Below, one piece after another: positions 5,181 through 38,189 of a stretch of 64,000 bases of DNA (its first letter is position 1; each line of letters starts with the position of its first letter). This stretch comes from an uncultured Candidatus Saccharibacteria bacterium (GTDB taxonomy: Bacteria > Patescibacteriota > UBA1384 > 2-12-FULL-50-11): NCBI GenBank assembly GCA_964599405.1, contig CAZRED010000001.1:149942-213941 (forward strand), written 5' to 3'. The notes beneath the pieces are model-generated. The model saw only the letters and a program-made list of their open reading frames with translations, was not told where the DNA came from and did no database searches. The position numbers and the translations under genes are program-made.

Positions 5181-6776
5181 ATGGCCAAATTACATCGTAC
5201 GGTCTTGATGGGGTTGGGACAAGTAATTCTCGCCCTGTTCTTACTAACAACCGCTTCTCCTGTCAGAGCAGCCGCTCCCATCAATTCATTGGATGTATCT
5301 ATTAACTTGGAAAAGACCGGCCTAGTTACCATCACCCAAGCTATCCAATATGTAACTCCCCAGCAATTAAGCTGGACCCTCTCTTCGCCAGAACGTGGCT
5401 TGAATGTTACCGCCGACGGGAAATTTAGTGAGGTAAAAACCCGTGAACGGAGCGGCAGCACGTTGGTAACGGCCACGACTTTTGCCCGCAATTGGCAGCT
5501 GCAGTACCAGACACCGAGCAGCTTAATTCGCCACAATAACCGCGACCAATTATTTCTGAAAGTTTTCGACCAACCTGGATCGACGATTTATGCGGTTTCG
5601 ATAACGTTCAACCTACCGGGTGTTGTTACCGGTAGCCAACTCACCGGCAATGTCTATGCTATCGGCGGCGTCGAAAACCCCCAGACAACCACCAGCTCCC
5701 CCGACCAACTTCACTACTCCGCCGATTTCGCTGGACCGAGCTCACTTCTGACCGTCAACGCCAATTGGGCGAAAGATGTGCTCGTCCTATCGGCCGTTCA
5801 GGAAGCCCAACTGGCTTTCTACCAGCTTGATGCCGCCCCCTGGCTAGCATTGGGAGTACTGTTGCCACTAGCTAGCCTAATTGTTCTAGCCCGCCTACTT
5901 TTCGCCCAGCGCCGCAGCGAGAGGGTGGTTACAGCCACCAATCCAAAGTTGCCCTCCGCTGCCCCAGCCGTTATCGCTGGCGTACTGGTCCGGAAAAAAA
6001 TCTACCCAGAAGAAATCGCTGCCTTAATTATCGACCTCTGCCAGCGCGGCTACTTACTAATTGTGAAGCGATCGGGAGTGTACTACCTAGTAAGACGCAA
6101 ACCGGCCGACGAAGCCCTCCAAGATTGGGAGCGAAAAATTGTCGATGAATTACTGCCCGTCAACGATCAAACAGGCAGCGAACCAAATTTGCACCAACTG
6201 GGTAGCCAAGCCCTCTACAGCCCGAAAGTCCGCAGCGCCTTCAACAGTATCTACCAAATCGTCACTAACCAAGGCTACTTCACCGAAAACCCCCACCAAA
6301 CCCGAATTCAGTACAAGCTTTTCGCCCTTTTTCTCTATTTCGCTAGTGCTGCCGGGATGGTTTGGTTGGCCGTTTCCGCTGGCAGCCCGTACTTGATTTT
6401 ACCGCTGGCTGGAACGATTATCATTTCACAGCTGATTATTAGAACTTCGCCGCAGATTGCTCACTACAGCGCTAAGGGGATTGCGGAGCGGCAAAAGTGG
6501 CTGGAGTTTGCCAACTTTTTAGCTGAGACTAAACCGTTACCTTTTGAGATGGCTCGCAACCATACATTTGAAAAATACTTGCCGTACGCGGTCGCCCTAG
6601 AAAAAACCTTACCGTGGGCCAAGCGCTTTGACTACTCCAGCATCACCATTTTGAAACCGGACTGGTTTGTGGCCTACGAAGACAGCTCAACCGTTGAGTT
6701 CGCTAAAGAAATTACGGCTTTCGTCAACGAAATATCAACTGGTATTACGACGCTGCGGGGACCGTTAGTGGGCTGA
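5181..6776 (+). CDS. DUF2207-like membrane protein (signal peptide, extracellular domain, C-terminal TM bundle)
   Basis: 531 aa. N-terminal signal, a TM helix near residue 220 and two or three helices near residue 380 give a DUF2207-type topology. Confidence 0.45.
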   Translation: MAKLHRTVLMGLGQVILALFLLTTASPVRAAAPINSLDVSINLEKTGLVTITQAIQYVTPQQLSWTLSSPERGLNVTADGKFSEVKTRERSGSTLVTATTFARNWQLQYQTPSSLIRHNNRDQLFLKVFDQPGSTIYAVSITFNLPGVVTGSQLTGNVYAIGGVENPQTTTSSPDQLHYSADFAGPSSLLTVNANWAKDVLVLSAVQEAQLAFYQLDAAPWLALGVLLPLASLIVLARLLFAQRRSERVVTATNPKLPSAAPAVIAGVLVRKKIYPEEIAALIIDLCQRGYLLIVKRSGVYYLVRRKPADEALQDWERKIVDELLPVNDQTGSEPNLHQLGSQALYSPKVRSAFNSIYQIVTNQGYFTENPHQTRIQYKLFALFLYFASAAGMVWLAVSAGSPYLILPLAGTIIISQLIIRTSPQIAHYSAKGIAERQKWLEFANFLAETKPLPFEMARNHTFEKYLPYAVALEKTLPWAKRFDYSSITILKPDWFVAYEDSSTVEFAKEITAFVNEISTGITTLRGPLVG

Positions 6777-7323: not shown

Positions 7324-9138
7324 TTACCTAGCTGGCTTAAGTGTAGCAAAGATTGCCGAGAGCTCGCTGTCTTCCAGTGTTTCCTGCTCCAGCAAGGAGC
7401 TAGCCATCTGGTCAAGCACTTGGCGGTGTTTCTTTAAGAGGGCTAGCGCTTGTTTCCAGGCTCGATCAACCATGGTGAAAATCTCCCGGTCAATTTTAGC
7501 GGCTAGTTCTTCGGAATTGGTTTTATGCATGCCTAGCTCACGACCTAAGAAGACCATCTCTTCCCGTTCGCCCATTTTAATTGGCCCGAGCGGGCTCATC
7601 CCGAAAATCATTATCATGTTGCGGGCAATAGTGGTGGCTCGATCCAAATCGTTACTGGCACCGGTCGTGATGCTTTTGAATACTAATTCTTCAGCCGCGC
7701 GGCCACCCAGCAATTGAACAATTTCCTGCTCGAATTTGGCTTTGGAAATTAGTTTACGATCTTCGCTCGGCAAGCTCAAAGTGTAGCCCAGCGCCATTCC
7801 CCGCGAGACAATCGAAACTTTATGAACGTCGTCCAGCTCTGGCAGGAGGTGACCGATTATGGCGTGTCCGGCTTCGTGATAGGCGACAATTTTTCGCTCA
7901 TCTTCTTTCATTAAGTGGCTGGTTCGCTCCGGCCCCAGCAGGGTTTTTTCAATCGCCTGGCGCAAGTGTTTTTGGCTGATTTTTTTCTTGTTTTCCCGGG
8001 CGGCTAAAATCGCCGCTTCGTTAACAACATTGCGCAAATCCGCTCCCGACAAACCGGGGGTGGATTTAGCGGTTTCGGAAAAGTTAACAGTGCTGTCAAA
8101 TGGTTTGTTTTTGGAGTGGATCTTCAAAATCTCTTCGCGTTCTTGGCGATCTGGTAAATCCAGCACGACCTTGCGGTCAAACCGGCCCGGGCGCATCAGC
8201 GCTGGGTCCAACACATCTGGCCGGTTAGTAGCGGCCAAAACAATAACATTAACGTCGGTCTCGAAGCCGTCCATCTCCACCAGGATTTGGTTAAGGGTTT
8301 GTTCACGCTCATCGTGCGAGCCGCCCAGGCCAGCACCGCGCTGGCGACCAACGGCATCCAGCTCGTCGATGAAAATCACCGTCGGCGAAAGTTTCTTGGC
8401 TTTATTAAATAAGTCACGGACCCGGGAAGCCCCGACACCGACAAACATCTCGACAAACTCAGAGGCCGATAGCGACATGAACGGCACGGCGGCTTCACCG
8501 GCGACCGCTTTGGCCAGTAGGGTTTTACCGACACCGGCCGGACCGACCAGCAAGACACCGCGGGGGATTTCTGCGCCGAGAGCTTGGAACTTTTTCGGAT
8601 TTTTCAAAAATTCCACGATTTCCACCAGCTCCTGTTTGGCGTGTTTCAAGCCAGCGACATCGGCAAAAGTCACTTTATTAGCACCGGCATACGGCCGGGC
8701 ACTGGTTTTGCCAAACGACATCGCCTGGGAGTTGCCGCTACGAGCCTGACGGCTCAAGTACCAAAACAGCCCACCGAGCAGTAAGAACGGCAATATAATA
8801 GAAGCAAGCGTGCCCCAAATCGCCCCGGCATCAGGGTCTTTAATGTCAACAATCGTTTTTTCTTGGGTGATGCCATAGTCTTTCAGACCTTGGCTAGCCT
8901 CTTTGTAACCTAGTAGTTTTTTACCTTCGCGGGTTTCGGCGGTAATTTTATTGCCTTCCACCACAACTCGCTCAATATTGCCCTGCTCAACCTGTTTGGC
9001 GATATCGGAGATTGCTACTTCTTCAACAGCCGGATTGCCGCCGAGCGCAAAAAGGCTCCAGATCACCAGCCCTAGAAAAACTAGGGTGAGCACCGAAAAA
9101 GTTTGTCGCCAAAACCGGTTCCTGTTTGTCATTGCCAT
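7324..9138 (-). CDS. ftsH: ATP-dependent zinc metalloprotease FtsH
   Basis: 604 aa with two N-terminal TM helices. Walker A GPAGVGKT, AAA SRH region and zinc motif HEAGHAI are present. Confidence 0.95.
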   Translation of the reverse strand: MAMTNRNRFWRQTFSVLTLVFLGLVIWSLFALGGNPAVEEVAISDIAKQVEQGNIERVVVEGNKITAETREGKKLLGYKEASQGLKDYGITQEKTIVDIKDPDAGAIWGTLASIILPFLLLGGLFWYLSRQARSGNSQAMSFGKTSARPYAGANKVTFADVAGLKHAKQELVEIVEFLKNPKKFQALGAEIPRGVLLVGPAGVGKTLLAKAVAGEAAVPFMSLSASEFVEMFVGVGASRVRDLFNKAKKLSPTVIFIDELDAVGRQRGAGLGGSHDEREQTLNQILVEMDGFETDVNVIVLAATNRPDVLDPALMRPGRFDRKVVLDLPDRQEREEILKIHSKNKPFDSTVNFSETAKSTPGLSGADLRNVVNEAAILAARENKKKISQKHLRQAIEKTLLGPERTSHLMKEDERKIVAYHEAGHAIIGHLLPELDDVHKVSIVSRGMALGYTLSLPSEDRKLISKAKFEQEIVQLLGGRAAEELVFKSITTGASNDLDRATTIARNMIMIFGMSPLGPIKMGEREEMVFLGRELGMHKTNSEELAAKIDREIFTMVDRAWKQALALLKKHRQVLDQMASSLLEQETLEDSELSAIFATLKPAR

Positions 9139-9223: not shown

Positions 9224-9294
9224 AGCGGGGTGGAGGAATGGCACCTCGGGTGGCTCATAACCACCAGTTGCACGTTCGAATCGTGCCCCCGCTA
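9224..9294 (+). tRNA. tRNA with CAU anticodon (Met, fMet or Ile2)
   Basis: Folded by hand. Acceptor AGCGGGG/CCCCGCT, D-arm GAGG-AATGGCA-CCTC, anticodon arm GGTGG-CTCATAA-CCACC, T-arm GCACG-TTCGAAT-CGTGC, discriminator A. Confidence 0.7.
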
Positions 9295-9394
9295 CAAAAA
9301 GAAAGGCCGCCCAACCGGGCGGTTTTTCTTGATAGGCCAACCAAAATGAACTAAAGTCGACTTTACTAGTCAGCGATATGAACGACTGTTACAT

Positions 9395-10170: not shown

Positions 10171-10243
10171 GCCGGTGTAGCTCAACGGTTAGAGCGAAGC
10201 ACTCATAACGCTTAGGCAGGTGGTTCAACTCCACCCATCGGCA
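10171..10243 (+). tRNA. tRNA with CAU anticodon (Met or Ile2)
   Basis: Acceptor GCCGGTG/CATCGGC, D-arm GCTC-AACGGTT-AGAGC, anticodon loop CTCATAA, T-arm GGTGG-TTCAACT-CCACC. Confidence 0.7.
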
Positions 10244-10246
10244 CGA

Positions 10247-12882: not shown

Positions 12883-13042
12883 GTGTTCTCCTTTTTATTA
12901 ACGAGCACAGAAACCGATTGCGGTCTCTAGCCCCTCTTTCTGTTTCCCCTCTACGCTCCCTAAGAACGGTCTGTCCGCCCCTAAAGTGCTGCTTCTCAAC
13001 GTTAATCATATGCGTCACCACCTGTCAAATCTGTTGAACTGG

Positions 13043-13071
13043 TTGAGAATTGGCCTCTAAAATCGTACAAT
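13043..13071 (+). promoter_or_regulatory. Sigma-70-type promoter for the tRNA cluster
   Basis: TTGAGA, 17-nt spacer, TACAAT, about 12 nt upstream of the first tRNA nucleotide. Confidence 0.45.
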
Positions 13072-13083
13072 ATACTTCCGTAA

Positions 13084-13266
13084 GGGTCCGTAGCTCAGTG
13101 GCAGTAGCAATCGGCTTAACAGTCAGGCCAGGTGGGAGTGTAGCTCAGCGGTTAGAGCGCCAAGCTTATACCTTGGTGGTCCATGGTTCGAATCCATGCA
13201 CTCCCACCTGGCAGGACTGTATGTAATATATCCGATCGGTCGGAGGTTCGATCCCTCCCGGACCCA
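13084..13266 (+). tRNA. Interrupted (split) class-I tRNA gene: 5' half 13084-13114 and 3' half 13232-13266, separated by a 117-nt insert in the anticodon loop
   Basis: Acceptor GGGTCCG (13084-90) pairs 7/7 with CGGACCC (13259-65). D-arm GCTC-AGTGGCAG-TAGC. Anticodon stem ATCGG (13110-14) pairs 5/5 with CCGAT (13232-36). Variable CGGTC. T-arm GGAGG-TTCGATC-CCTCC. The insert 13115-13231 contains a whole tRNA. Confidence 0.45.
13134..13206 (+). tRNA. tRNA-Ile with UAU anticodon, nested inside the split tRNA
   Basis: Acceptor GGGAGTG/CACTCCC, D-arm GCTC-AGCGGTT-AGAGC, anticodon arm CCAAG-CTTATAC-CTTGG (anticodon TAT), T-arm CATGG-TTCGAAT-CCATG, discriminator A. Confidence 0.75.
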
Positions 13267-13270
13267 CAGA

Positions 13271-15082
13271 ATGAAAAATATTTGGCGGCTTTTCGAGTTA
13301 GTCCCCAGCTACAAAAAGCGTCTAACCCGTGTGTTATTGGTTAATAGCGTCCTCGGCCTGGTTGGCCTAGCAACACCGTATCTCCTTAAAACTGTCCTCG
13401 ACCTGGTCATTGCCGCCGTTGGAACGGGGGTGACGCCAGAAAGTAGCGGGCAAATCACTACCGCACTCTCGGTTCTCATAAGCGTAAGTTTGCTTGGTGT
13501 CTTATTTGACTATATAGGTGAACGCCTTAGCGACTTACTATTCATCGACATTATGTGGGAGATCCGCAAAAAAACCTTCCAGCATCTTTCGAAACTGTCG
13601 ATCGACTACTACGAGAAGAACAGGGCAGGGGAAATTATGGAACGCATTAGTACGGGTACGATGGCTTTCTCCCGATGGGCATTTAGTATTGCCGATGGTT
13701 TTCTGGGAGTATCCATCACCATTATTCTTGCTATTATCCTGCTCTGGATACAAATCCCAGTGGTCGGGTTAATTGCCACCATTTCCGTACCGTTAAATTT
13801 CTATTTAGTAATTAACCGTAGTATTAAAACGAAACCAATCCGCGAGGAGTGGTCTAAGCATGCCGAACAGGGCATGGGCGAGATGGGCGAAACCCTGTCA
13901 CAAATTAGTACCGTACGGAGTTTCGCTCAGGAAGAAGAGCGCCTTAGTCGCTACACAAAACAAGTCGACGGCTACCGACATTTGCGTATCCGCCAATCGC
14001 AAATCGAGTGGCGGACGAACGCCCTTCGCGGGCTTCTCAACATGGTAACGTTCATCGGATCGATTGGTTATGTAGCTTGGGGCATTTTTCACGGTCAGCA
14101 CACCGTTGGTGACGTTCTAATGGTATCTCTATACCTCCAACAGATTCGCGGAAATATTGCCCCGTTGAGCAGAATTATGACCGATACGGGTGAGGTCGAA
14201 ACCGCCGCTACCCGACTAGCTACTATTCTTGACGCTGACTCTGCAGTCATCGACCAGGTCGGTGCTTCCGATCTCGATGAGCTGCGATCAATAGAGTTCC
14301 GTTCGGTTTCTTTCCAATACCCGGGAAAAACCAAAAAGGTCCTTCGCGACGTTTCGTTCAAGCTCGCGCGCAGCCAAACACTAGCTTTGGTCGGCCCCTC
14401 TGGCGTCGGTAAAAGCACGATTACCAAACTGCTATTACGTTTTTACGAACCAACCAGCGGTCAGATTCTGATAAACGACAAACCAATTGAAACGTTTACC
14501 CAAAGTTCTGTCCGGAAACTGCTCGGAATGGTTATGCAAGACGTTGCGTTATTTAACGACACCATTAAGGAGAATCTTCGTTTCGCGCGGCCAGACGCCA
14601 GCGATGCTGAAGTGATGCGCGCCGCGGCAATCGCCCACGCTGACGCGTTTATCGATAAATTCCCAGATAAATACGAAACGCTTGTTGGCGAACGGGGAGT
14701 ACGTTTGAGCGGTGGCGAGAAGCAGCGGGTTGCGATTGCCCGAGCCGTATTGAAAAATCCCCAGTTAATTATCCTTGACGAAGCTACATCAGCCCTCGAT
14801 TCCCAATCTGAACGCTATGTCCAAGACGGTCTTTACCAGCTCTTAAAGGATAAGACGGCTCTCATTATCGCGCACCGGCTCAGTACCGTGATGCGAGCAG
14901 ATAAAATCGTTGTACTCAGCGACGGTTCAGTCCTAGAGCAGGGTAACCATCAAGATCTGCTCGAGCAAAAAGGACTCTACGCCAAGCTCTTCTCCATGCA
15001 ATCCGACAGCCTCAAAGATTTCGACATTGCCCCAGAACTAATATCGAAACGGACCAAGAATGATACCGAACCCACACAATGA
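13271..15082 (+). CDS. ABC exporter, fused permease and ATPase (MsbA/lipid-exporter type)
   Basis: Six-TM N-terminal domain. Walker A GPSGVGKST, signature LSGGEKQR and Walker B LILDEATSALD. The track start at 13196 lies inside the tRNA, so MKNIWRLFELVP at 13271 is used. Confidence 0.9.
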   Translation: MKNIWRLFELVPSYKKRLTRVLLVNSVLGLVGLATPYLLKTVLDLVIAAVGTGVTPESSGQITTALSVLISVSLLGVLFDYIGERLSDLLFIDIMWEIRKKTFQHLSKLSIDYYEKNRAGEIMERISTGTMAFSRWAFSIADGFLGVSITIILAIILLWIQIPVVGLIATISVPLNFYLVINRSIKTKPIREEWSKHAEQGMGEMGETLSQISTVRSFAQEEERLSRYTKQVDGYRHLRIRQSQIEWRTNALRGLLNMVTFIGSIGYVAWGIFHGQHTVGDVLMVSLYLQQIRGNIAPLSRIMTDTGEVETAATRLATILDADSAVIDQVGASDLDELRSIEFRSVSFQYPGKTKKVLRDVSFKLARSQTLALVGPSGVGKSTITKLLLRFYEPTSGQILINDKPIETFTQSSVRKLLGMVMQDVALFNDTIKENLRFARPDASDAEVMRAAAIAHADAFIDKFPDKYETLVGERGVRLSGGEKQRVAIARAVLKNPQLIILDEATSALDSQSERYVQDGLYQLLKDKTALIIAHRLSTVMRADKIVVLSDGSVLEQGNHQDLLEQKGLYAKLFSMQSDSLKDFDIAPELISKRTKNDTEPTQ

Positions 15083-28269: not shown

Positions 28270-29271
28270 ATGAAAAAACTACATCTAAAAAAACTCTTAT
28301 TGGCAACCAACCTAATGACTGTGCTGTCGTTATTGTCGCCCAACTTTGCCCAGGCAATTGAGTATGGTGGCGTTGGTGGAAAACCGGCCAATCCGATTGC
28401 CGGCAACTCTCGAACCGAGTCAATATTTATCCACACCCTTGAGCCGGGAGCAACCCAAGAAGACGGGGTGCTGGTGGTAAATAATAGCCCCGAGACTAAA
28501 ACCCTGTTGGTCTATGCAGCCGACTCCACTCCTTCCACCGATGGCGCTTTCGCCTGTAAGCAACTAACCGAAGAGAAGACCGACGTCGGTGCTTGGATTA
28601 CCTTAAAAAAGTCAGAGGTAACACTGGAATCCGGTACCAAAGAAACCGTTCCCTTCACCATTCGCACTCCTCTAACCGCCAGCGTTGGCGAACATAACGG
28701 CTGTATCCTGATTCAGGAAAAGAAAGCCGCCGTTGAAGGCCAAACCGGCGCGGCCATATCGATGCGGACCGGTCTGCGCGTCGCTATTACTATTCCTGGA
28801 GATATCCTTAGAAAACTGGAAATTGGCGCCCTGACAGTGGCACCAACAGACGCTGGATTTTCCCTTACCCCCACAGTTAAAAACATTGGTAACGTCTCAA
28901 TTGACGCAAACGTTCGGGTAATAACACGCAATTTCATTGGGATGACGCATTTCACGAACGGCGGAGAGTTTCCGATTCTCCGAGGCGATACCTCACAGTG
29001 GAATTTCGATTTGAAAAGACCGTTTTGGGGCGGTTTTTACCGTTCCACCCCCGGCGTTGAGTACGACGAAAATCCAGAAGCGGGCGTTGGACTAAAAAGC
29101 GGCAAGGCGCTGACTAATTTAACTGGAGCCACCGTTTGGTTCTTTAGTTTCCCAACGCTACCGGCCTTACTAATCGAAATCTTGGTACTACTGTTTATTT
29201 TCCTTGGCTTACCGTTGATCATTCGCCAGATCCGCAAAAATCGCTCAGTGCCTTCAGTGCCGCTAGCTTAG
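28270..29271 (+). CDS. Signal-peptide protein with a C-terminal TM anchor and short basic tail (DUF916/CscA-like architecture)
   Basis: 333 aa. Lipobox-less signal peptide. C-terminal helix FPTLPALLIEILVLLFIFLGLPLII is followed by RQIRKNR. Confidence 0.45.
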   Translation: MKKLHLKKLLLATNLMTVLSLLSPNFAQAIEYGGVGGKPANPIAGNSRTESIFIHTLEPGATQEDGVLVVNNSPETKTLLVYAADSTPSTDGAFACKQLTEEKTDVGAWITLKKSEVTLESGTKETVPFTIRTPLTASVGEHNGCILIQEKKAAVEGQTGAAISMRTGLRVAITIPGDILRKLEIGALTVAPTDAGFSLTPTVKNIGNVSIDANVRVITRNFIGMTHFTNGGEFPILRGDTSQWNFDLKRPFWGGFYRSTPGVEYDENPEAGVGLKSGKALTNLTGATVWFFSFPTLPALLIEILVLLFIFLGLPLIIRQIRKNRSVPSVPLA

Positions 29272-29308
29272 GCCAGCTTGTGCTGGTGGTGGGGCTTTTG
29301 GATAAAGG

Positions 29309-32300
29309 ATGACTAAGCTCCAAATACAACTCCTGCTTGTGATTGGTCTATTGGCGTTGATTGTCAGTGGTTCCTTGGCGTTACGTAAACCGCCCTCAGT
29401 AACTCCGCCCGAAGCTACCTACCGCTACCGCCCACTATCAGAGCTGAAGCTCAATACCACGAATCGGGACAAGTATTTCGTTGGCCAGCACGAAGTGGTT
29501 CCGACGACGGAGCCAATCACGGCGGCTGTGCCACCACTGGCGCACCAAGCTCGGCTCTCTTTGAACAGCGCTCACCCCGGTCTACCAAATACTGGTGCCG
29601 GCGATTTTGATACCTCGATTAAAGCCACTGGCACGGGTTCGATTGCCGAAGCGGTACCGAAAAGCTCCCAGGCCAAAGCGGGTCTGTATCAGCTGAAAGT
29701 AACCGACGGGGTCACTGGGCAGGTAGTTTCTGACCAGACCGTTGCCTGGGGCGTATTAGTTTTTAACTCCGATTACGCCGCCTATCCAATCAACACCAAA
29801 GCCAGACTAGCGATGGCGGTTTTGGACGACCGTGGCAAGATGATCTGTGACGCCGAGCTGACGCTGGCGATCACTGAGCCCAACGGCCGAACTATTACAT
29901 TAAGCACGGCTAATAACCAAATTCTCGTTAATGAGGCCTGTTTTGTCTACGGATTGACCGAAGAGCCAGACTACGTGGCCGAATATTTACCAACCCAAGC
30001 TGGTAACTATCAGGTTGCCTTAACCGCTCGGATCGGTAACGGCGTTAGAGTGCTACACGATCAATTCTCCGTGGTCGAAAACGCCCCGTTCTATCTGCAA
30101 AGGGTTGGTGCTTCCCGAACCTATCCGGCCGCTAGCTATCCCTACACCTTTAACTTTCAACCCACCCAAAGCGGTCGTTACCAATTAACCGAAAACGTGC
30201 CGGGCAGTTTCGAAATACTCGACCTGACGATTGACGGCAACCCCTGCCCGACGGAAAGCTTACTGAACGCCGGAGCTTGCAAGATTGAGGTCTCTGAGGA
30301 CGGCAATGAGAAGCAATTAATCTGGCGGGTCGACGCCCGAGCCAATCGTGATATAAAGATCGCCTATACATTTAAGGGGCCTAGTATTTCGCCGTATTTA
30401 TTCCGGCTTGGACCGGCCGAAATCACCTCACCCGACGACTCAATTTGGACGGAGACACGTTCTTGGCTAATTGCCTCCGATGCCGCTTGCCAATCGAACG
30501 GCACTGGCGGCGGCAACTCCAACGCATCTGGCTCTTGGCAGACCTGCGGTGGGACGACCCCGCAGGCCGCTGACTCAATTACCATTCTGAGCGGCGACAC
30601 CATTACTATGAACGCCGCCTTGAGCGTCACCAGCATTGTTATCAACAACGGCGGCATTTTTACCAACAACGCCAGCCCCTTCACCTTAACGCTCACCGGT
30701 ACCACTGGCACCCTCTTCACCTTGGGCGCAACCGGTACCTTCACGCCCGGCACTTCGATTAGCGTCACGATGAACCCAAATGCTTCAATTACCACTACCT
30801 CCGGTACCATTACTTTTTTTGACTTAAACTTTACGCCGACAATCTCTGCCAGCAACAAAACCTATACGATGGGTTCCGGCGCTCTGACCATTAACGGCAA
30901 CTGGGCTATTACCGGTACGGCCGCGAGTAACGCCTTAACCTTAACGGTTAATATGAGTGCCAACGTGACGGTGGCTTCGACAAAAACCACGACGATTGGC
31001 CCGGCGTCGTTAACTAACAGAGCCACTTTGGACGTACAGCCCTCACTGGCCAGCTACAACCTAACGACCGGTACCCTGGCTATCACCGCCCTAGGTACGC
31101 TAAACGCCGCCAATGCCACCTCGGCGATTACGGTTGCCAACAGCTACAGCAATAGCGGCATTTTCACCGCCGGTTCTAGCACGGTTAGCTTCACCGCTAC
31201 TGCCACTGGTAAAACTTTGAGCGGTACACTATCCGGCGCTAACGGTAAATTCTTCAACGTCATTTTCAACGGCGTCGGCGGTGCCTGGGCATTCGGTGCT
31301 GCCGTCGAAGTAGCTAACGACTTTACCGTTACAAATGGGGCCGTCACTGCTAGTAACAATAATCTCTCCGTCACTCGTGACTTTACACTGGCTTATACCG
31401 CCGGTGTTTCTTACGTGGCTGGATCGTCAACCGTTACCGTCGCCAGACACTTCAATGACCCTGGCGTCAAATACGTTTCTAACACTTCCGAGCTGGCTCT
31501 GGACGGCACGGGCACTTTAACCACCGCTACAACTGCTTCCCTTTACGATGTATCGCTTGGCCAATCCGGCAACACAACAACACTGGCAATGGCCGGAGCG
31601 ATCGACAACTTTAACTACTACGCTAGCGACACAGATCATTTCCGGGTCCTGCTCTTCGACGGGAGTGTTGTCAAATACAAAAGCGCCGAGATAACCCCGC
31701 CCGGCACCGGTGTCAGAAGCTATACTCCGCCATCCCCTGTCCCCTACAAAGCTGGCTGGAGTATCGGTATCTATACCGTCGGTAATGGCGTCATTCCCTA
31801 CACCGGTAGCGGCGGCACACACTACTACCAAGCCAATAACTCTGGCCAACCAAACGAGGAAGCTACGATTTCCTGGCAAGGAACAACAGTCCGAACCTAT
31901 TCGATTAACGGCGAGGTCAACGGCGTCCGGGTAATCGGCAATGACGCTATCAGCCGGCCTTCGCTCGACTCATTCACTAATACCTCCCTGAAAGACACCA
32001 ATAACAACGCTACGGGGGTGGCGGAAGGATTATTAACTGTGACCAACGGCGCTACCTTGAACGGCGGTACGGTTACCGGCACTGATACCGGACTATTTCT
32101 ACCGTGTAGCACAACTTGTTCCGGCCACCTGGTCTTTAACTCACCGACCACCTTGAGCGGCTCCGGCGACAACCGGGTAGTTTACTCAACCGGCAACTCA
32201 ATAACCTATACCGTTACTGGGGGAACCTACGGCAGTTGGAATATTGCAATGGAGACAACCACCCTGTCCGATACGCCGATAACGTTCGAGCTTGGGGGAA

Positions 32301-35053
32301 ATATTATCACCGACGGGTTTGTCGCCCTTCAAGGGTCGCCCCTGGGTGGGAGCAATAGCTTCAACACCGCCGGTTTCAATATGACCGCACTGCGTTTTGA
32401 CGCTGGCAGCGAAAACCAGACCGGTAGTTGGGTCGTTAATCTTGGCGCCTCAACAATTACCCTGGACTCGACTAGCGACTCCTTTGGCGTAGCCAGCAAC
32501 GGCGGCTCCCATACCTTCAACCTCTCTACTTCCTCTGTCTCCACGACTGGGGATATCCGGTTTATTAACGGTACCGGTACAGTCGCCGCGTCTGGCAGTA
32601 CTTCCACGATTACGATGACACCAGCCGCTTCGACCACCCGGACTTTCACCACTAACGCCCAAACGATTGATAACTTTGTCGTTAACGGCGGTAACGGTGC
32701 CGCCACTGTCAACCTGGACGGCAATTTAATTGCCTCTGACAACTTAACGATTACCGCTGGTACTTTGGACGTTACGGCAACGCCGTACAGCGTCACAATC
32801 GGCGGCAACTACTCTAACTCCGGCAGCTTTACTCCCCGGTTGGGTACTGTGACTTTTAATGCTACCGACGCGGGTAATACTCTGGCGGGCACGATGACCG
32901 GTGCGTCAGCCTTTTATAATCTCGTTTTCGACGGCGTTGCTGGCGGCTGGAGCTTTAGCGCCGCGGTGACGGCAACGAACGACTTTACCGTTACCAACGG
33001 GGACGTTACCGCCAATAACAATAACTTGACTGTTACCAGGGACTTTACGCTAACTAACGTGGTGGGCGTTTCCTACACGGCCGGCTCCTCCACCATCACC
33101 GTTAGCCGCGACTACAATAACCCCGGCGACCGGTTTGTTCGTGGCACATCATTAGTTATCCTTGACGGCACCGGCAACGTTAATACCACTGGCGGTAAAT
33201 TTAATAACCTTTCTCTGGCTTACACCTCACAAGTCTCAACCTTCAATACCACCAACTTCGCGGTTTACGGCGTTCTCACCTTTAACGGCGGTACCGCCAA
33301 CGGGAGTGTTGACGGTTACGTTTCGCTGGAGCGATCTGCTAGCGCTACCCCAATTGTGTTCGCATCAGCCACCACCCTCTCCGGCACTAGTAGGACGCTT
33401 TTTCATAACAACAACGCCAATAGCCTGACTACCACCATCGCTGGTGGTAACTACGGGACGTGGAATATTATTTTGTTTACTACCCTTGGGCCTGCCACCA
33501 GTAGTATCTACCAGTTAGCCGGTAATATTACTAACACTGGTTACGTTACCCTCCAGGCCGTTGGGGGATCGACGGGCAACGTTTTTAACACCCAAAACTT
33601 CAACATTACATCGCTACGGTTTGACCTCGGCACCCAGTCCCGAACCGGACCGTGGACTGTCAATTTTGGGTCTTCGACGCTGACCCTTTCTGATACTGCT
33701 GATTCGTTTGGCGTTGCTAGTAACGGCGGCTCTCATACCTTCAACCTTTCAACCGCCGCCATCAACACCGTTGGGAACGTGCTGTTTGCCAACGGCACCG
33801 GCACCGTGTCCGTGAGTCAGGGCACCTCGACCGTGACTTGGGCGCACCCAACTGGTACCAAAACTTACGCCCCCAACAGCCAATCTCTGCACAATCTCAC
33901 GCTCAACAGCGCCGCTGGTACCCTTCAACCCAATGGTGCCGTTATTGCTACCGGCAACTTTATTATCACCGCCGGCAGCTACGACACCGTTGCTGGCCAA
34001 GACTACGCCTTAACGATCGGCGGCAACTACACCAACTCCGGCACATTTAATGCGCAGGGTGGAACGGTTACCCTAAACGGCTCCGCTACCCAAACGCTTT
34101 CTGGCACGATGGTCGGCGGTAGCGCATTCAATAACTTAACGATTACCAATAATTCTGGCACATCGGCTAGCGACTGTGAGCGAACAAGTTTTGTCCCATC
34201 AGTGGACTTTAATGCCGCTGCTTGGACAAGCGGTAACTACACCATCACTACGGCCAATGTTCGGGTCGAGTACAACTCCGGCTCTACCTACGCCTTCACC
34301 AACATCAATTGGAACGGTCAGACGATTGGGACACAGATTTACTTCCGCAACTCGGTCGCCAGCGACACCTGGCTGTTGGATGTTTCGGGAACGCAGACAG
34401 CTGTCTCCTACGTTAACGTCTCCCGGTCTAACGCCGCTAGTGGCCTTCAGATTGTTGCTAGCGACGGTACCAACACTGACTGCAACAACAATAGTAACTG
34501 GCTTTTCGTTTCTGGTGCCTTATCGACCGATATCGTTAACGCTGGCGGCACTCCAATTGATTCACCATCTATCGCCATGGGTGCAGCCACATTCTCCCTT
34601 TTATATCAAACAGTTAGCGGTATCTTTGGCGCCACTGATGAAAAAGTCAGAGTTAGTAACACCACCGTTAACCCCCAATGGAGCTTGACGATTGCCGCCA
34701 GTAGCGGTCCGACTGGGCTCTGGTCGGCTGGGACACCGAAGTATGACTTTAACGACCCAACTGGGAGTGCAGGAGACGGCGGCGATGGCGACGCTTACGG
34801 GGGACAGCTGACAATGGATGTGACTGGTGGAACCCTTGGTGGAACCTGCTCGACGACCGGAATAACTAAAGGATCATCTGCTGGTTTTTCTGAAGGAGTG
34901 GTCAACTCAATCACCCTGCTCACGGCCAGTGGCACGGCCGACGTTAGTTGCTATTGGGATTTAACCGGCGTGGACGTACTTCAAACCCTACCTTCCGAGC
35001 AAGCAACTAGCAGCTACTCCATCAATATGACTCTCACTATTACCGCCAATTAA
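29309..35053 (+). CDS. Giant (1914 aa) repeat-rich surface protein ending in the WxL-like module
   Basis: Signal/TM at the N-terminus. Long Thr/Gly/Asn-rich beta-solenoid-like repeats with two roughly 400-aa internal duplications. The last roughly 170 aa are homologous to the two small paralogs (YWDLTGVDV, QWSLTIAAS). Confidence 0.7.
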   Translation: MTKLQIQLLLVIGLLALIVSGSLALRKPPSVTPPEATYRYRPLSELKLNTTNRDKYFVGQHEVVPTTEPITAAVPPLAHQARLSLNSAHPGLPNTGAGDFDTSIKATGTGSIAEAVPKSSQAKAGLYQLKVTDGVTGQVVSDQTVAWGVLVFNSDYAAYPINTKARLAMAVLDDRGKMICDAELTLAITEPNGRTITLSTANNQILVNEACFVYGLTEEPDYVAEYLPTQAGNYQVALTARIGNGVRVLHDQFSVVENAPFYLQRVGASRTYPAASYPYTFNFQPTQSGRYQLTENVPGSFEILDLTIDGNPCPTESLLNAGACKIEVSEDGNEKQLIWRVDARANRDIKIAYTFKGPSISPYLFRLGPAEITSPDDSIWTETRSWLIASDAACQSNGTGGGNSNASGSWQTCGGTTPQAADSITILSGDTITMNAALSVTSIVINNGGIFTNNASPFTLTLTGTTGTLFTLGATGTFTPGTSISVTMNPNASITTTSGTITFFDLNFTPTISASNKTYTMGSGALTINGNWAITGTAASNALTLTVNMSANVTVASTKTTTIGPASLTNRATLDVQPSLASYNLTTGTLAITALGTLNAANATSAITVANSYSNSGIFTAGSSTVSFTATATGKTLSGTLSGANGKFFNVIFNGVGGAWAFGAAVEVANDFTVTNGAVTASNNNLSVTRDFTLAYTAGVSYVAGSSTVTVARHFNDPGVKYVSNTSELALDGTGTLTTATTASLYDVSLGQSGNTTTLAMAGAIDNFNYYASDTDHFRVLLFDGSVVKYKSAEITPPGTGVRSYTPPSPVPYKAGWSIGIYTVGNGVIPYTGSGGTHYYQANNSGQPNEEATISWQGTTVRTYSINGEVNGVRVIGNDAISRPSLDSFTNTSLKDTNNNATGVAEGLLTVTNGATLNGGTVTGTDTGLFLPCSTTCSGHLVFNSPTTLSGSGDNRVVYSTGNSITYTVTGGTYGSWNIAMETTTLSDTPITFELGGNIITDGFVALQGSPLGGSNSFNTAGFNMTALRFDAGSENQTGSWVVNLGASTITLDSTSDSFGVASNGGSHTFNLSTSSVSTTGDIRFINGTGTVAASGSTSTITMTPAASTTRTFTTNAQTIDNFVVNGGNGAATVNLDGNLIASDNLTITAGTLDVTATPYSVTIGGNYSNSGSFTPRLGTVTFNATDAGNTLAGTMTGASAFYNLVFDGVAGGWSFSAAVTATNDFTVTNGDVTANNNNLTVTRDFTLTNVVGVSYTAGSSTITVSRDYNNPGDRFVRGTSLVILDGTGNVNTTGGKFNNLSLAYTSQVSTFNTTNFAVYGVLTFNGGTANGSVDGYVSLERSASATPIVFASATTLSGTSRTLFHNNNANSLTTTIAGGNYGTWNIILFTTLGPATSSIYQLAGNITNTGYVTLQAVGGSTGNVFNTQNFNITSLRFDLGTQSRTGPWTVNFGSSTLTLSDTADSFGVASNGGSHTFNLSTAAINTVGNVLFANGTGTVSVSQGTSTVTWAHPTGTKTYAPNSQSLHNLTLNSAAGTLQPNGAVIATGNFIITAGSYDTVAGQDYALTIGGNYTNSGTFNAQGGTVTLNGSATQTLSGTMVGGSAFNNLTITNNSGTSASDCERTSFVPSVDFNAAAWTSGNYTITTANVRVEYNSGSTYAFTNINWNGQTIGTQIYFRNSVASDTWLLDVSGTQTAVSYVNVSRSNAASGLQIVASDGTNTDCNNNSNWLFVSGALSTDIVNAGGTPIDSPSIAMGAATFSLLYQTVSGIFGATDEKVRVSNTTVNPQWSLTIAASSGPTGLWSAGTPKYDFNDPTGSAGDGGDGDAYGGQLTMDVTGGTLGGTCSTTGITKGSSAGFSEGVVNSITLLTASGTADVSCYWDLTGVDVLQTLPSEQATSSYSINMTLTITAN

Positions 35054-35081
35054 CAGACTTTCCTCTCCATTAATTTACGTA

Positions 35082-36089
35082 GTGAGTTTGTTTCGTTATC
35101 CTAATATTGGTAGGGGTGTAATCGATTCCATGAGAACTGGCCGTTTTAAACTGTTTGCTTTGATACTAGGTCTGACCATAGTAGCGTTTGGGAGTGGCAT
35201 AAAAACCGTCGCCGCCCAAGACAGTCCCAGCGTCTTATATGTCCCCTTAATCGGCCTAACATCGGTACCAGATCCGTTGGCACTACCGGATGGGGCGGGT
35301 GATGTAACGTATCATTACGCAGTTAAAAACTTTCTTAGCGAGGCGGCTTTAACTAACGTCCAAGTCGTCGACGACAACTGTGCCTCCGTTAAATTTATCG
35401 AAGGCGACGATAATAACGACTCCGAGCTTGATTACGACGAAACCTGGCGCTACACCTGTACCACTAAAGTTTCCGTCACCACTCAAAGTACGGCCACGGC
35501 CACCGGTACTGCCAATAATTTAACCGCGACTCACAAAGCCTACGTTACCGTTATTGTTGGTCTAAGTGACCCAGCCCCACTTGTTAGTATTGTTAACATC
35601 ACCAAAGTTGCCTATCCATTGTCCCTACCGGCCGAAGGAGGCGACATTACCTTTATCTATAAGGTTAACAATCCAGGCGTCGTGTCATTAAGTGATGTCA
35701 CTGTCGTTGATGATAGGTGTGGGGCGATGTCCGGCAAACTCGGGGACAGGAACGGCAACGGCCTGCTGGATACCAATGAGGTTTGGATTTACACCTGTAC
35801 AATGACTCTGAGAGAGACTACTACCAATACCGCCACCGTTACCGCTTTTGCTAATGGATTAATGGCCACGAATAACTTTTCCCTGACCGTCAAGGTTGAC
35901 ACCCTAGTCGATCAGGCGCTCATCAAACTTCCCGATACCGGCAAAGATGCGCTATTAAAAATTATGGTTTGGGAAATCTTATTAGGTATATTGGTAACTC
36001 TACTCACCATATCTATTGTTTTAAACCGAAAGAATCGACTGCGAAGCGTTGAAATTACACAAAATATCTTAGACGGGGGAAGAAAGTAA
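35082..36089 (+). CDS. LPXTG-anchored surface protein with two tandem roughly 110-aa repeats
   Basis: C-terminal LPDTG, hydrophobic helix, then NRKNRLRS. Repeats contain VVDDNC...WRYTCT and VVDDRC...WIYTCT. The likely start is the internal Met at 35130. Confidence 0.65.
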   Translation: MSLFRYPNIGRGVIDSMRTGRFKLFALILGLTIVAFGSGIKTVAAQDSPSVLYVPLIGLTSVPDPLALPDGAGDVTYHYAVKNFLSEAALTNVQVVDDNCASVKFIEGDDNNDSELDYDETWRYTCTTKVSVTTQSTATATGTANNLTATHKAYVTVIVGLSDPAPLVSIVNITKVAYPLSLPAEGGDITFIYKVNNPGVVSLSDVTVVDDRCGAMSGKLGDRNGNGLLDTNEVWIYTCTMTLRETTTNTATVTAFANGLMATNNFSLTVKVDTLVDQALIKLPDTGKDALLKIMVWEILLGILVTLLTISIVLNRKNRLRSVEITQNILDGGRK

Positions 36090-36132
36090 CCATGAATTGT
36101 TTAGAGGACTAAATGAATAGTTTGTTACACAA

Positions 36133-37044
36133 ATGAAAAGACCAAAATTAGTATTAATAATTATTGTGCTGGTTGTTGTAGCCGCGTTGGGGGCCGGAGT
36201 TTATTTCAAGCTGATTCCCCGTCTGTTCCAAAAACCCGTCGCCACAGTAGTCGATCAGCTATTCGGTTGGAAGTTTCCAATTACCAAATTCCCACTGGTT
36301 GGGCCGGATGGCCAACTGGCGTACTCCAACATCCGTGATCCTGGCGGTATACCACAAGGGCTACCAGTTCGCCTGAAAGTTCCCGTTATCGGCGTCGATT
36401 CAGCTATTGAAGACGCGCTGATTACCCCGGACGGAAGAATGGACGTGCCAATCGGCTCGGTTAATGTTGCCTGGTTTTCTCTTGGCCCTCATCCCGGCGA
36501 CGAAGGAAGCGCGGTGATCGGTGGGCATTTTGGGATTAGAGACGGGGTGCCGTTCGTCTTCTACAACTTAGACAAGCTAAAGGTTGGCGACAAGGTATAT
36601 GTGGTCGACGACAAAGACCAGACATTGGCTTTCCAGGTCAGGGAAATTAAATTATTCGATCGAAACGCTGATGCAACGACGGTTTTTACCTCCGATGACG
36701 GGTTGGCTCATCTTAACCTGATTACTTGCGAAGGCATTTGGAACCAAGTTGACGGTTCGTATCCCGAGCGGCGAGTAGTGTTTACCGATGCCATACCATC
36801 AGAAGGGGCAGTAACCGTTACTCCTAAGTCTCCAACGGCGGCGATTCCCACGCCAAACCCAACACCAACTCCGACACCAACTCCGACAACAGAAAATACA
36901 GTATCTACAGCTGCCTTGCTTCAGAGCGTGAATCGGGCAATAAAAAGTGCGGCCAGTACGCCAATCGACGCACTAATCACTTTCACCCTACTAGCTTCGA
37001 TAGCGTATATGGCCACCAAAATCGTCAGGCTCCGCAGAGCATAG
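36133..37044 (+). CDS. Sortase family transpeptidase
   Basis: N-terminal TM. Catalytic His in GGHFG, TLxTC-type motif LNLITCEG, Arg in RRVVFTD. Pro/Thr-rich linker and C-terminal TM. Confidence 0.75.
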   Translation: MKRPKLVLIIIVLVVVAALGAGVYFKLIPRLFQKPVATVVDQLFGWKFPITKFPLVGPDGQLAYSNIRDPGGIPQGLPVRLKVPVIGVDSAIEDALITPDGRMDVPIGSVNVAWFSLGPHPGDEGSAVIGGHFGIRDGVPFVFYNLDKLKVGDKVYVVDDKDQTLAFQVREIKLFDRNADATTVFTSDDGLAHLNLITCEGIWNQVDGSYPERRVVFTDAIPSEGAVTVTPKSPTAAIPTPNPTPTPTPTPTTENTVSTAALLQSVNRAIKSAASTPIDALITFTLLASIAYMATKIVRLRRA

Positions 37045-37060
37045 CGACAGTGTTACCGCA

Positions 37061-38032
37061 CTATTTAGTTGTTAAATTCCACAGAAACTCAATTGCTCGA
37101 TTCTCTGCCCAGTGATGGTCGGGGTCGCCGTTTTTGGACTGACTAATAAATCCACCGTGGCCACCGCCATTGGTGATGATTAACTGGACGTTCGGGTTGT
37201 TGTCTACCCCATCAAACGAGCGGGCGGGGATTACCACATCGTCAGCGCTCTGAATAATCAGGGTGGGAACGGCAATGTTTGGCAAAAACGGCCGGGCGCT
37301 GGCCTTGGCGTGATAGTCGCCGGCATCAATAAAACCGTTATGGGGAGCACAGAACCGATCGTAATCCCCCAGTGTTTTAATGTGCTTAATGGCCTGGATA
37401 TCGTACCTTCCCGGAAAAAGACGGCTCCGAGTGCGCAGCGACGACATCTGCCAATACAACATCAGCCAACGATAGATGGCCGGGGCCTTGTTATCGACAG
37501 AATCAACAGCGGCGGCTAGGTCAATTAGCGGTGAAATTCCGACTGCTCCAATTAGTTGCTTCGGAGCGTCCTGGCCCCATTCGCCAACCGCTTTTAGGCA
37601 GGCGTTGCCGCCGTAGGAAAAACCCATCAGCCCAATTTTCGGCAGTGAATCTTCCCTAATTAACTCTTCAATCACTATGCGCAGATCGGCACTCTGGCCG
37701 GCGTGAGAGAGGGTTTTACTGTATTTCTCACTGCCGCCGCCGTTGCGTAAATTAACCCTGACCACGTTGAAACCGCGGGTGTAGGCTTTGGCGGTGGTGC
37801 CTCGAACGTATGGGCTGATAGTCGAACCATTGAGCCCGGCAATGATAACTAAAGTGGGGGAGGTAGTTTTATCAGCCTGCCAAGAGCATTCCCCAACTAG
37901 TTGAGAGCCATCGGGCAGTTGAAAACGGCGATCTTTCGACGGAAAAAACCTAATTGGCCTGGGCATCAGCACGCTGCCGATTGTTTGGAGATGCGGGCTT
38001 TTTAACCATTTGGCTACGACAAAATTATTCAT
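37061..38032 (-). CDS. Alpha/beta-hydrolase (YheT/ABHD-type)
   Basis: Nucleophile elbow GFSYGGN. Asp and His positions are consistent with the fold. Confidence 0.65.
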   Translation of the reverse strand: MNNFVVAKWLKSPHLQTIGSVLMPRPIRFFPSKDRRFQLPDGSQLVGECSWQADKTTSPTLVIIAGLNGSTISPYVRGTTAKAYTRGFNVVRVNLRNGGGSEKYSKTLSHAGQSADLRIVIEELIREDSLPKIGLMGFSYGGNACLKAVGEWGQDAPKQLIGAVGISPLIDLAAAVDSVDNKAPAIYRWLMLYWQMSSLRTRSRLFPGRYDIQAIKHIKTLGDYDRFCAPHNGFIDAGDYHAKASARPFLPNIAVPTLIIQSADDVVIPARSFDGVDNNPNVQLIITNGGGHGGFISQSKNGDPDHHWAENRAIEFLWNLTTK

Positions 38033-38117
38033 TTAGTCCTCTAAACAGTTCATTTAGTCCCCTAAACAGTTCATTTAGTCCTCTAAACAATTCATTTAGT
38101 CCTCTAAACAATTCATT
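38029..38117. repeat. 21-bp tandem repeat, 4.2 copies (TCATTTAGTCCTCTAAACAGT)
   Basis: Copies at 38029, 38050, 38071 and 38092. The first copy contains the hydrolase start codon and SD on the minus strand. Confidence 0.85.
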
Positions 38118-38189
38118 ATATTTGGTGTAGTATACATCGTTAGCTCTAGGACTTACCGGTACTTGAATTCTACAGCTGCGGGCTGGAAA

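Follow-up and report, generated by a model that had tools for sequence, protein, structure and literature searches.

Can a transfer RNA (tRNA) gene hold a second, complete tRNA gene of the same specificity inside its own anticodon loop, and if so, which of the two serves the cell? The question is raised by positions 13084 to 13266 of a 64,000 nucleotide (nt) stretch from an uncultured Candidatus Saccharibacteria bacterium (contig CAZRED010000001.1, positions 149,942 to 213,941 of the forward strand). The whole of this stretch is referred to here as the window. At this locus, directly 5' of an ABC transporter gene, a tRNA-Ile(UAU) gene is nested within another tRNA-Ile(UAU). The nested locus is real and its architecture is recurrent. 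The preferred reading, to which a probability of about 0.5 is given, is that the inserted tRNA cassette is the working gene and that the interrupted host copy would be non-decoding, kept as a folded clamp or processing module.

All of the elements that had been described here from the letters alone, in what will be called the sequence-only reading, are present. From 13084 to 13266 the order is GGGTCCG-TA-GCTC-AGTGGCAG-TAGC-A-ATCGG-CTTA, ACAGTCAGGCCAGGT, the inner tRNA, CCTGGCAGGACTGT-ATGTAATA, and TAT-CCGAT-CGGTC-GGAGG-TTCGATC-CCTCC-CGGACCC-A. The identification of the inner gene as tRNA-Ile(UAU) holds, with an ARAGORN call of tRNA-Ile(tat) at 13134-13208 and an Rfam RF00005 match at 13134-13206 of 74.3 bits (E=2e-14, gathering score 29). 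The inner copy has the cloverleaf, the D and T loop residues, and the score above the gathering threshold of a canonical bacterial tRNA. The outer stems had been called perfect, which is the case for the acceptor (GGGTCCG/CGGACCC, 7/7), the anticodon stem (ATCGG/CCGAT, 5/5), and the T arm (GGAGG-TTCGATC-CCTCC, 5/5), but slightly overstates the D stem, which has three Watson-Crick pairs and C13.U22.

The insertion lies within the anticodon loop of a tRNA gene and its junction is compatible with anticodon positions 35/36. The interruption had been placed at 13115-13231 (117 nt), correctly in the anticodon loop, and is refined to 13119-13228 (110 nt) if the outer halves are joined at 35/36. This gives the loop CTTA/TAT and an ARAGORN call of tRNA-Ile(tat), and the same loop, CTTATAT, is also present in the uninterrupted tRNA-Ile(UAU) of a relative (L263), from which the outer gene is taken to be a tRNA-Ile(UAU) like the inner. 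Joining at 36/37 would instead make UAA the anticodon of a class I body, a form implausible for tRNA-Leu. A notional spliced outer tRNA of ~73 nt would run ...GCAATCGGCUUA/UAUCCGAUCGG..., with the exon-exon string GCAATCGGCTTATATCCGATCGG, the unspliced strings being GGCTTAACAGTC and GTAATATATCCG.

The reverse-complementary flanks, which had been said to prolong the inner acceptor stem into a helix of about 20 bp with a 2x2 internal loop, do so. Flank and inner acceptor form a single 22 nt inverted repeat (13119-13140/13199-13220, 91% complementary). The stalk is made up of 6 bp, a 2x2 AG/AG internal loop, and 7 bp that are continuous with the 7 bp inner acceptor stem, and the inner discriminator A13206 pairs with T13133. 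The 183 nt nest folds at -85.6 kcal/mol (z=-6.0), and an explicit double-cloverleaf structure, with canonical pairs only, has -79.8 kcal/mol. Chance is excluded by the finding that 0/200 shuffles were equally stable, together with the ARAGORN call on the joined outer tRNA.

Features of the nested tRNA locus and its surroundings in the window
Feature	Position	Strand	Basis
Promoter-like site, TTGAGA-17 nt-TACAAT	13043..13071	+	Consensus scan, 10/12 matches; a consensus match only, with putative function
Outer tRNA-Ile(UAU), 5' half: acceptor 5' strand, D arm, anticodon strand ATCGG, loop 32-35 CTTA	13084..13118	+	
Insert 5' flank (i5), ACAGTCAGGCCAGGT, pairing with 13206-13220	13119..13133	+	Inverted repeat, duplex energy
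Inner canonical tRNA-Ile(UAU)	13134..13206	+	ARAGORN, Rfam RF00005
Insert 3' flank (i3): helix strand 13207-13220, CCTGGCAGGACTGT, and unpaired tail 13221-13228, ATGTAATA	13207..13228	+	
Outer tRNA-Ile(UAU), 3' half: loop 36-38 TAT, CCGAT, variable loop CGGTC, T arm, acceptor strand, discriminator A	13229..13266	+	
ABC transporter gene (ABC_membrane and ABC_tran)	13271..15082	+	Pfam

The promoter-like site ends 12 nt upstream of the outer tRNA and is the sole candidate promoter for the whole nest. The same -10 element, TACAAT, stands at the aligned position in front of the uninterrupted tRNA of the relative L254. The promoter/terminator scan found no terminator-like site downstream of the nest. 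The ATG of the ABC transporter is 4 nt past the end of the outer tRNA, a start placed by homologues and by the conserved N terminus MKNIWRLFELVP. In a mechanical list of open reading frames (ORFs) the gene begins at an ATG at 13196, within the inner tRNA (13196-15082).

Orthologous loci were found with the ABC transporter as anchor, its orthologues having 57-81% protein identity, and in 10 genomes, including that of the window, tRNA-Ile(UAU) is directly upstream of this gene. The uninterrupted version of the gene, which the sequence-only reading had proposed should be sought in relatives, is present at the locus in L254 (81% ABC identity), L258 (68%), L259 and L260 (66%), and L263 (63%). It is also uninterrupted over the visible part in L001, where the contig ends within this tRNA. 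Besides the window, L257 and L256 are singly nested, while in L002 a type B cassette is within the tRNA of a type A cassette that is itself within a third tRNA, three tRNA-Ile(UAU) deep. The types are named for their flanks: that of the window is type C, that of L257 is type A (TGTTCATTTCATTGT/CAATGAAATGAA and a hairpin), and that of L256 is type B (TCTTCTTAACA/TGTTAAGAAGA and the hairpin GTTGGCGAAAGCCAAC). Nested and un-nested genomes are interleaved in the ABC protein tree, and this patchy distribution and the uninterrupted relatives show nesting to be derived, lineage-specific, and recurrent at this locus.

The closest of the uninterrupted relatives, L254, has a tRNA that is identical to the window inner tRNA at 72/73 positions, and no outer copy. 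Its 33 nt leader was considered as a relic of the window outer 5' half, MAFFT aligning GCTC(A/G)GTGG and TTAACAGTCA-like strings, but the local alignment has p=0.11 and no such claim is made. In the window and five relatives, the ABC gene starts 1-4 nt after the discriminator of the outermost tRNA-Ile without a Shine-Dalgarno sequence between them (window 13267-13273, L254:2499-2503, L258, L256, L001, L002). The tRNA-like structure at the junction may double as a 5'-end processing signal for the mRNA. In the distant relatives L259 (2452-2500) and L263 (1176-1215), there is a conserved stretch of ~50 nt, from ATGAAAGCGAGTACG..., between tRNA-Ile and the ABC start, which is possibly a short upstream ORF.

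Nests are not confined to this locus. Metagenome contigs were scanned for two T loops too close together for tandem tRNAs, and a script then checked the pairing of the outer acceptor and anticodon stems. At least 4 further nests were identified among 120 loci. These are Ile-UAU in Ile-UAU (L066), Gln-UUG in Gln-UUG (L111), Arg-UCU in Arg-UCU (L090, confirmed once both of its inserts were removed), and Cys-GCA in Cys-GCA (L101, 60% GC), where the nearest named homologues of the neighbouring protein are from Candidatus Omnitrophica (45-51% identity). Two of these form pairs with related nests, L101 with L266 (Cys) and L066 with L267 (Ile). In every nest the inner and outer isoacceptor are identical: Ile in the window, L257, L256, L002, and L066/L267, Arg in L090, Gln in L111, and Cys in L101/L266. 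In all cases the inner tRNA is canonical, and the insertion is compatible with 35/36 in all nests except L101 (34/35). The intron mode of ARAGORN, which had been suggested as a check, recovers the outer tRNAs of L002, L101, L111, and L266 but misses that of the window.

Several loci resemble nests in part. On the - strand of L105 (~2657-2810), an intact tRNA-Glu-UUC has pairing flanks and then a second 3' half, the latter beginning within the anticodon loop; an rve-family integrase ORF lies ~330 nt upstream. On the + strand of L095 (~7640-7770), an intact tRNA-Ile-UAU is followed, after a 17 nt spacer, by a second 3' half. No 5' half matching these second 3' halves is present in the 160 nt scanned upstream in either case, and the two loci may have arisen by the decay of nests or as scars of classical integration. 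In L020 (- strand, ~300-690), a tRNA-Gln(UUG) is preceded by repeated 5' fragments, made up of the acceptor and the beginning of the D arm, and followed by a T arm and acceptor in duplicate; this is a more complex rearranged tRNA locus, which the simple nest layout does not fit. The two-T-loop scan found no clear nest in viral contigs, only tight tandem tRNAs and L234:6613-6800, an IMG/VR viral contig in which tRNA-Arg(CCT) lies within a tRNA-like scaffold with an acceptor (GCCTGGT/ACCAGGC) and D and T arms. Here the anticodon arm has given way to a long helix, ACCACATAT/ATATGGTGGT, with the inner tRNA at its tip and no recognisable remnants of the anticodon loop. A phage-borne source of the inner or outer tRNA of the window was also considered and rejected, there being no exact IMG/VR match to either 3' half.

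The flank helix is the common feature of the nests. Folded under constraint, eight nest types have a helix of 10-15 bp that starts 0-2 nt into the insert, after loop positions 32-35, encloses the inner tRNA, and reaches into or near its acceptor stem; if CCA is encoded by the inner gene (L066, L090, L101), the ACCA is unpaired. On the 3' side there is a tail or hairpin of 0-20 nt before loop positions 36-38. The leader and trailer of the window inner tRNA form a duplex of -17.2 kcal/mol (p=0.025 against shuffles), with -15 to -18 kcal/mol (p<=0.025) for nested inner tRNAs, as against -5 to -11 kcal/mol for the lineage's ordinary tRNAs (p>0.05 with a single exception). The helix is not, then, a general trait of precursor tRNAs in this lineage, the ordinary tRNAs having no significant leader/trailer pairing.

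These helices also covary. Types A and B have homologous helices that keep the same register, with 3 of the 9 shared pairs compensated and 0 disruptions, and their 3' hairpin occurs as GTTGCC/GGCAAC, TTGCCC/GGGCAG, and GTTGGC/GCCAAC. One compensatory change is seen between L066 and L267 (CCCGTC/GACGGG to CCCGCC/GGCGGG) and one between L101 and L266 (AGCC/GGCT to AACC/GGTT). Covariation of this kind can be mimicked in DNA by the template-switch 'correction' of quasi-palindromes, which is why selection on the flank helices at the RNA level is likely but unproven.

The state of the outer copies, in contrast to the canonical inner tRNAs, is variable. In L002 level 2, L256, and L257, hairpin-forming D-loop inserts of ~40 nt replace G19, together with a T12.C23 mismatch; the insert sites are L002:3661-3712, L256:2280-2331, and L257:1344-1400, with a further D-loop hairpin of 72 nt in L090 (~6277-6348). 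The outer copy of L257 also has C32G, L002 level 1 has a 6 nt loop and an A4.C69 mismatch, and L002 level 2 has a T-stem mismatch. In L267 the universally conserved G19 is A in the outer copy, and in both L266 and L267 the encoded CCA has been lost from the outer copy only and is kept on the inner. Between L256 and L002 the outer acceptor nevertheless stays paired via different wobble-compatible states. Indeed, the decay is in the D loop and the anticodon loop, while the acceptor, T, and closing stems are retained, a pattern that a foldable module would fit better than a decoding tRNA.

The two Cys nests, L101 and L266, show how strongly an outer copy can be conserved. The outer 5' halves are identical at 33/33 positions and the 3' halves at 38/39 (71/72 in total), as against ~50% identity in the flanking 40 nt and 73-81% in the variable intron parts. 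The outer-specific acceptor pairs 5-68 and 6-67 and the pair G49-C65 are kept, and the lone substitution keeps a G.U pair. Since outer-specific pairs have been retained, gene conversion from the inner copy cannot explain the conservation. With its stems paired, and the Cys halves conserved across diverged genomes, the outer copy is, on this comparative evidence, not mere debris.

How a cassette comes to lie in an anticodon loop can be approached through its flanks. In types A and B the 3' flank looks like the start of the ABC gene, whose first ~20 nt form the native trailer of the resident tRNA (ATG(TT)AAGAAGAGTTGGCGA against ATGAAGAATATCTGGCGA), with p<0.0005 for type B in local alignment and p=0.0025 for type A against L258. 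On this match, these cassettes are copies of a tRNA-Ile/ABC junction, as distinct from generic transposon ends. Their 5' flanks are unlike any native leader and no more than complementary to the 3' flanks; the type C flanks of the window have no resemblance to anything with which they were compared. Flanks of different nests are otherwise unrelated, save for types A and B and a CCTGCC/GGCAGG motif common to L066, L090, and L111.

The type B cassette (118 nt) has just 2 differences between L002 and L256, 1 of them within the 46 non-tRNA positions. Between these genomes, the ABC genes are saturated at four-fold degenerate sites (26-37% identity). For L002 and L256 those of the adjacent gene are 34% identical, and the likeness of the cassettes has P ~1e-19 if neutral. 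The host parts differ more, with 4/38 differences in the outer 3' half (89% identical) and 75% identity in the D insert. Either the type B cassette has moved recently between lineages, or every one of its positions is constrained.

Further copies of the flanks were not found in the window beyond chance, nor in the ~270 loci fetched. A family of repetitive extragenic palindromes or miniature inverted-repeat transposable elements (MITEs) was rejected as their source, neither the flanks nor the D-insert hairpins recurring in the window or the fetched loci. The 15 nt imperfect inverted repeat that borders the window inner tRNA does have the form of the terminal inverted repeats of a MITE, but there are no dispersed copies, and the target overlap or duplication at the junctions amounts to 0-2 nt, without consistency. 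No ORF is present in the insert, which also lacks the attL/attR arrangement of an insertion made by an integrase. Pfam was run on window ORFs of at least 140 amino acids (aa) up to 58.5 kb, save one of 1914 aa; no integrase, ligase, or nuclease that might be concerned with the nest was identified among those scanned. A gene of this kind shared between loci as a neighbour was rejected as well, the contexts of L066, L090, L101, and L105 being different and the rve integrase being present only near L105.

From these findings the following course of events may be proposed. A cassette of 110 nt, made up of a complete tRNA-Ile(UAU) and 15 nt inverted repeats, would sit between anticodon positions 35 and 36 of the tRNA-Ile(UAU) in the resident position, and both tRNAs would be carried on a single transcript, probably starting a few nt before 13084. 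The rod of ~20 bp would isolate the inner tRNA as a domain of its own and keep it from pairing wrongly with the outer halves. The inner tRNA would then be freed by RNase P and RNase Z, perhaps once RNase III had cut the rod, and would be the working tRNA-Ile(UAU) of the cell. The outer gene would give no decoding tRNA. Its acceptor, T, and anticodon stems would pair, close the precursor, and present an acceptor/T minihelix, so that the outer copy probably persists as a clamp or as an RNase P/Z module; in the window the cut would fall 4 nt before the ABC start codon. RNase Z cleavage at this junction would leave a nearly leaderless ABC mRNA, which would be a reason for retaining the outer acceptor/T arm. 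Nests would have arisen repeatedly, each time when a copied tRNA transcription unit entered a DNA break in an anticodon loop. Inner and outer isoacceptor would be identical because an insertion into a single-copy essential tRNA gene survives only if its cargo is a replacement.

A number of observations do not sit easily with this account. The outer copy of the window has no disabling change, with G18G19, a 7 nt loop (if joined at 35/36), and all stems kept, and that the inner tRNA is the sole functional product is something we infer. In the Cys nests, the outer halves are conserved as strongly as neighbouring functional tRNAs, which a functional outer copy would explain equally well. Hairpin 1 of the Ile D inserts covaries in three genomes (GATGAC/GTCATC, GATGGC/GCCATC, GGTGGC/GCCACC), which would not be expected of a dead region. 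It is also the inner tRNA of the window, rather than the outer, that agrees with the tRNA inherited vertically in L254. Among the fetched loci no tRNA matches the outer, which has only an acceptor stem and variable loop in common with the type B cargo. A history in which a foreign cassette entered a resident gene would predict the opposite, with an L254-like outer copy. The insertion itself has left an overlap of 0-2 nt at the junctions and no other copies in the window or the fetched loci; no recombinase or transposase is present among the window ORFs scanned, and none is consistently near other nests.

Some of these points would be accounted for if the outer gene were a genuine intron-containing tRNA-Ile(UAU), from which a bacterial pathway removes a 110 nt tRNA-bearing intron and ligates the exons, so that one transcript gives two tRNAs. 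Such a pathway, which we regard as unlikely, might conceivably use RNase P at the 5' junction (the foot of the long helix, a setting known from other RNase P substrates), a second nuclease at the 3' junction, and an RNA ligase to seal the loop. The joined cloverleaf at 35/36 is flawless in the window, as it is in L066, L101, L111, and L266, and the flank helix, starting 0-2 nt past the 5' junction in 8/8 nest types, would bring the junctions together. Outer acceptor stems differ from the inner by compensated pairs, the flank and D-insert helices covary, and the Cys outer halves are under purifying selection as strong as that on the neighbouring tRNAs. The position is suggestive too, nearly all nests fitting 35/36, the site of group I introns in Patescibacteria (PMC13011429). 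Signals for splicing are, however, lacking. Rfam at the gathering threshold matches only tRNA in the whole window, and at E<=10 there is no match to an intron or ribozyme family, only to tRNA, in window 12950-13350 and in L002 3560-4040. A self-splicing group I or II intron is rejected on the lack of a catalytic core match and on length, 73 of the 110 nt being inner tRNA, where a ribozyme would need ~200 nt. The bulge-helix-bulge motif is absent from every junction in the constrained folds of the eight nest types, and the 3' junction, with its tail of 0-20 nt, has no sequence or structure common to the nests. Neither a splicing endonuclease (EndA/Sen) nor an RtcB-type ligase is among the window ORFs scanned with Pfam, the window being 64 kb of the genome, and a full-text literature search found no link between Patescibacteria and a tRNA splicing endonuclease. 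Many outer copies are moreover incompatible with a working tRNA, through loss of G19, D-loop inserts, loss of CCA, or a 6 nt loop, and L254 manages without an outer copy. The sequence-only reading had envisaged an outer tRNA reassembled like a split tRNA after excision of the inner by RNase P or Z, for which these disabled outer copies and missing motifs give no support. RNase P/Z chemistry alone cannot restore a 7 nt loop; its products, with 3'-OH and 5'-P ends and the flanks retained, would not give a decoding anticodon loop.

The alternative from that reading which has fared best is a small tRNA-carrying insert in a tRNA anticodon loop, given the uninterrupted relatives, the varied flanks in sister lineages, and the constant isoacceptor match. 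Whether such an insert is a dedicated element is another matter. A non-coding mobile element, MITE-like or intron-like, that targets the anticodon loops of its own isoacceptor and spreads horizontally by means of an enzyme encoded elsewhere seems improbable. It would explain the near-identity of the type B cassette in L002 and L256, despite saturated four-fold sites and host tRNA parts that differ more, as well as the successive invasions to three levels in L002 and the patchy distribution among close relatives; the flanks do resemble terminal inverted repeats, and a TA overlap at the window junction is possible. Against such an element, no second copy of any flank is present in the window or the ~270 fetched loci, nor is there a consistent target duplication (0-2 nt), a transposase or integrase consistently nearby, or any phage copy found. 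The flanks are mostly unrelated between nests and covary instead of keeping a protein-binding sequence, and in types A and B the 3' flank derives from the start of the local ABC gene. That something categorically new is at work, whether bacterial protein-dependent tRNA splicing around an embedded tRNA or a self-replacing selfish tRNA element that homes to its own isoacceptor, is doubtful. The splicing version of this, in which end-processing enzymes would recognise the embedded tRNA and its stalk and excise a tRNA-bodied intron, the exons would be trimmed and ligated, and a nest would yield two or three tRNAs, may still be entertained; it would also offer a living instance of tRNA halves that a helix brings together. 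An artefact of assembly or binning, such as a chimeric join of the tRNA-Ile reads of two strains, is very improbable indeed. It had to be considered for a metagenome-assembled genome (MAG), in which assemblers can err at conserved repeats such as tRNA genes, and L001 does end in this tRNA. The inner and outer sequences are very different except for a 5' GTAGCTCAG(T/C)GG stretch (11/12 identical), so that there is no long repeat to misjoin; the junctions are precisely in the anticodon and the flanks are complementary to each other. Nests at the same locus come from independent assemblies made from different samples with different pipelines, L002 and L257 from NCBI and L256 from Logan, with JGI also among the sources of the assemblies, and compensatory changes are conserved in L101/L266 and L066/L267. 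A working inner gene in a non-decoding, retained host copy is the reading that is carried forward here.

Known interrupted tRNA genes contain self-splicing introns, in bacteria and organelles, or are protein-spliced, split, or permuted, in archaea and eukaryotes. None of these classes accommodates a tRNA interrupted by a whole tRNA of identical specificity, and full-text literature searches (open-access papers and bioRxiv) found no account of one bacterial tRNA gene inside another. In archaea, including the protein-spliced tRNAs and the split tRNAs of Nanoarchaeum equitans, a bulge-helix-bulge is cut by EndA and the ends are ligated by RtcB. The nests are similar in that the halves are brought together by a helix, of 12-15 bp in the archaeal case, at a break in the anticodon loop, and in having several interruptions per gene (D and anticodon loop). 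They differ in having no bulge-helix-bulge, in their bacterial hosts, and in having contiguous halves around a whole tRNA; in the window these share one strand and a single promoter-like site and are separated by 110 nt, unlike a trans-split gene of the Nanoarchaeum type. The analogy with split tRNAs is geometrically apt and mechanistically unsupported.

In bacterial rRNA operons, a flanking helix, the processing stalk, releases the stable RNA, and in polycistronic transcripts tRNA-like structures serve as 'punctuation' that marks cleavage sites for the RNAs next to them. Both are widespread traits of rRNA operons and organellar transcripts. The nests have in common with these the long flanking helix around a released RNA, which in the operons is not known to lie inside another tRNA, and by analogy with the rRNA stalks the nest helix might be cleaved by RNase III. 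In the engineered tRNA scaffold of Ponchon and Dardel, an RNA that replaces the anticodon loop is reportedly stabilised, and processed via the acceptor and T arms that are kept. This is an artificial construct, and offers only a functional analogy for the retention of the outer acceptor/T arm.

Group I introns for which self-splicing has been shown are found at position 35/36 of Patescibacteria tRNAs, and these are Rfam-recognisable and at least 200 nt long (Nakagawa et al. 2026, PMC13011429). The nests share with them the interruption of the anticodon loop, the phylum, compatibility with the same unusual 35/36 site, and a host gene that is missed by standard finders, while the nest insert is 110 nt (of which the tRNA is 73 nt) and has no group I core, splicing being known only for the introns. 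Integrative elements that target tRNA genes also often insert at the anticodon loop, with function restored by the incoming DNA and a fragment displaced (compare L095 and L105), and a mobile-element model has been put forward for tRNA gene disruption in Caldiarchaeum (Sugahara et al. 2012, PMC3293823). Those elements are, however, kilobases long, encode an integrase, duplicate the tRNA 3' end as att sites, and have no 5' half upstream. The nest inserts are 110-150 nt, non-coding, contain a whole tRNA, and leave both host halves in place with an overlap of 0-2 nt.

The setting of the window locus is bacterial, with FtsH, DivIC, Ddl, L,D-transpeptidase, MurJ, sortases, sigma-70, and DnaG identified by Pfam among the neighbours, and the nearest genomic relatives are MAGs labelled Saccharibacteria or Patescibacteria. 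Two further tRNAs with the anticodon CAT are present, at 9224-9295, where ARAGORN calls tRNA-Met(CAT) and Rfam has no tRNA match at the gathering score, and at 10171-10244, reported by both. A surface-protein cluster extends from 28270 to 41922 and includes the 1914 aa ORF (29309-35053), sortases (36133-37044 and 41302-41922), a WxL-interacting-type domain protein, and an ice-binding-like protein (40312-41253).

Nests are up to three deep, involve at least four isoacceptors in several bacterial lineages, and have covarying stalks. Standard tRNA finders report the inner gene only, which makes these loci invisible in annotations and may distort the tRNA counts of reduced genomes. If the outer copies are dead, the nests would record a recurrent and very precise break-and-rescue of essential tRNA genes, in which tRNA-like modules persist for processing. 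If they are spliced, the nests would represent a new bacterial RNA-processing pathway, with a bearing on tRNA halves and on the origin of tRNA introns.

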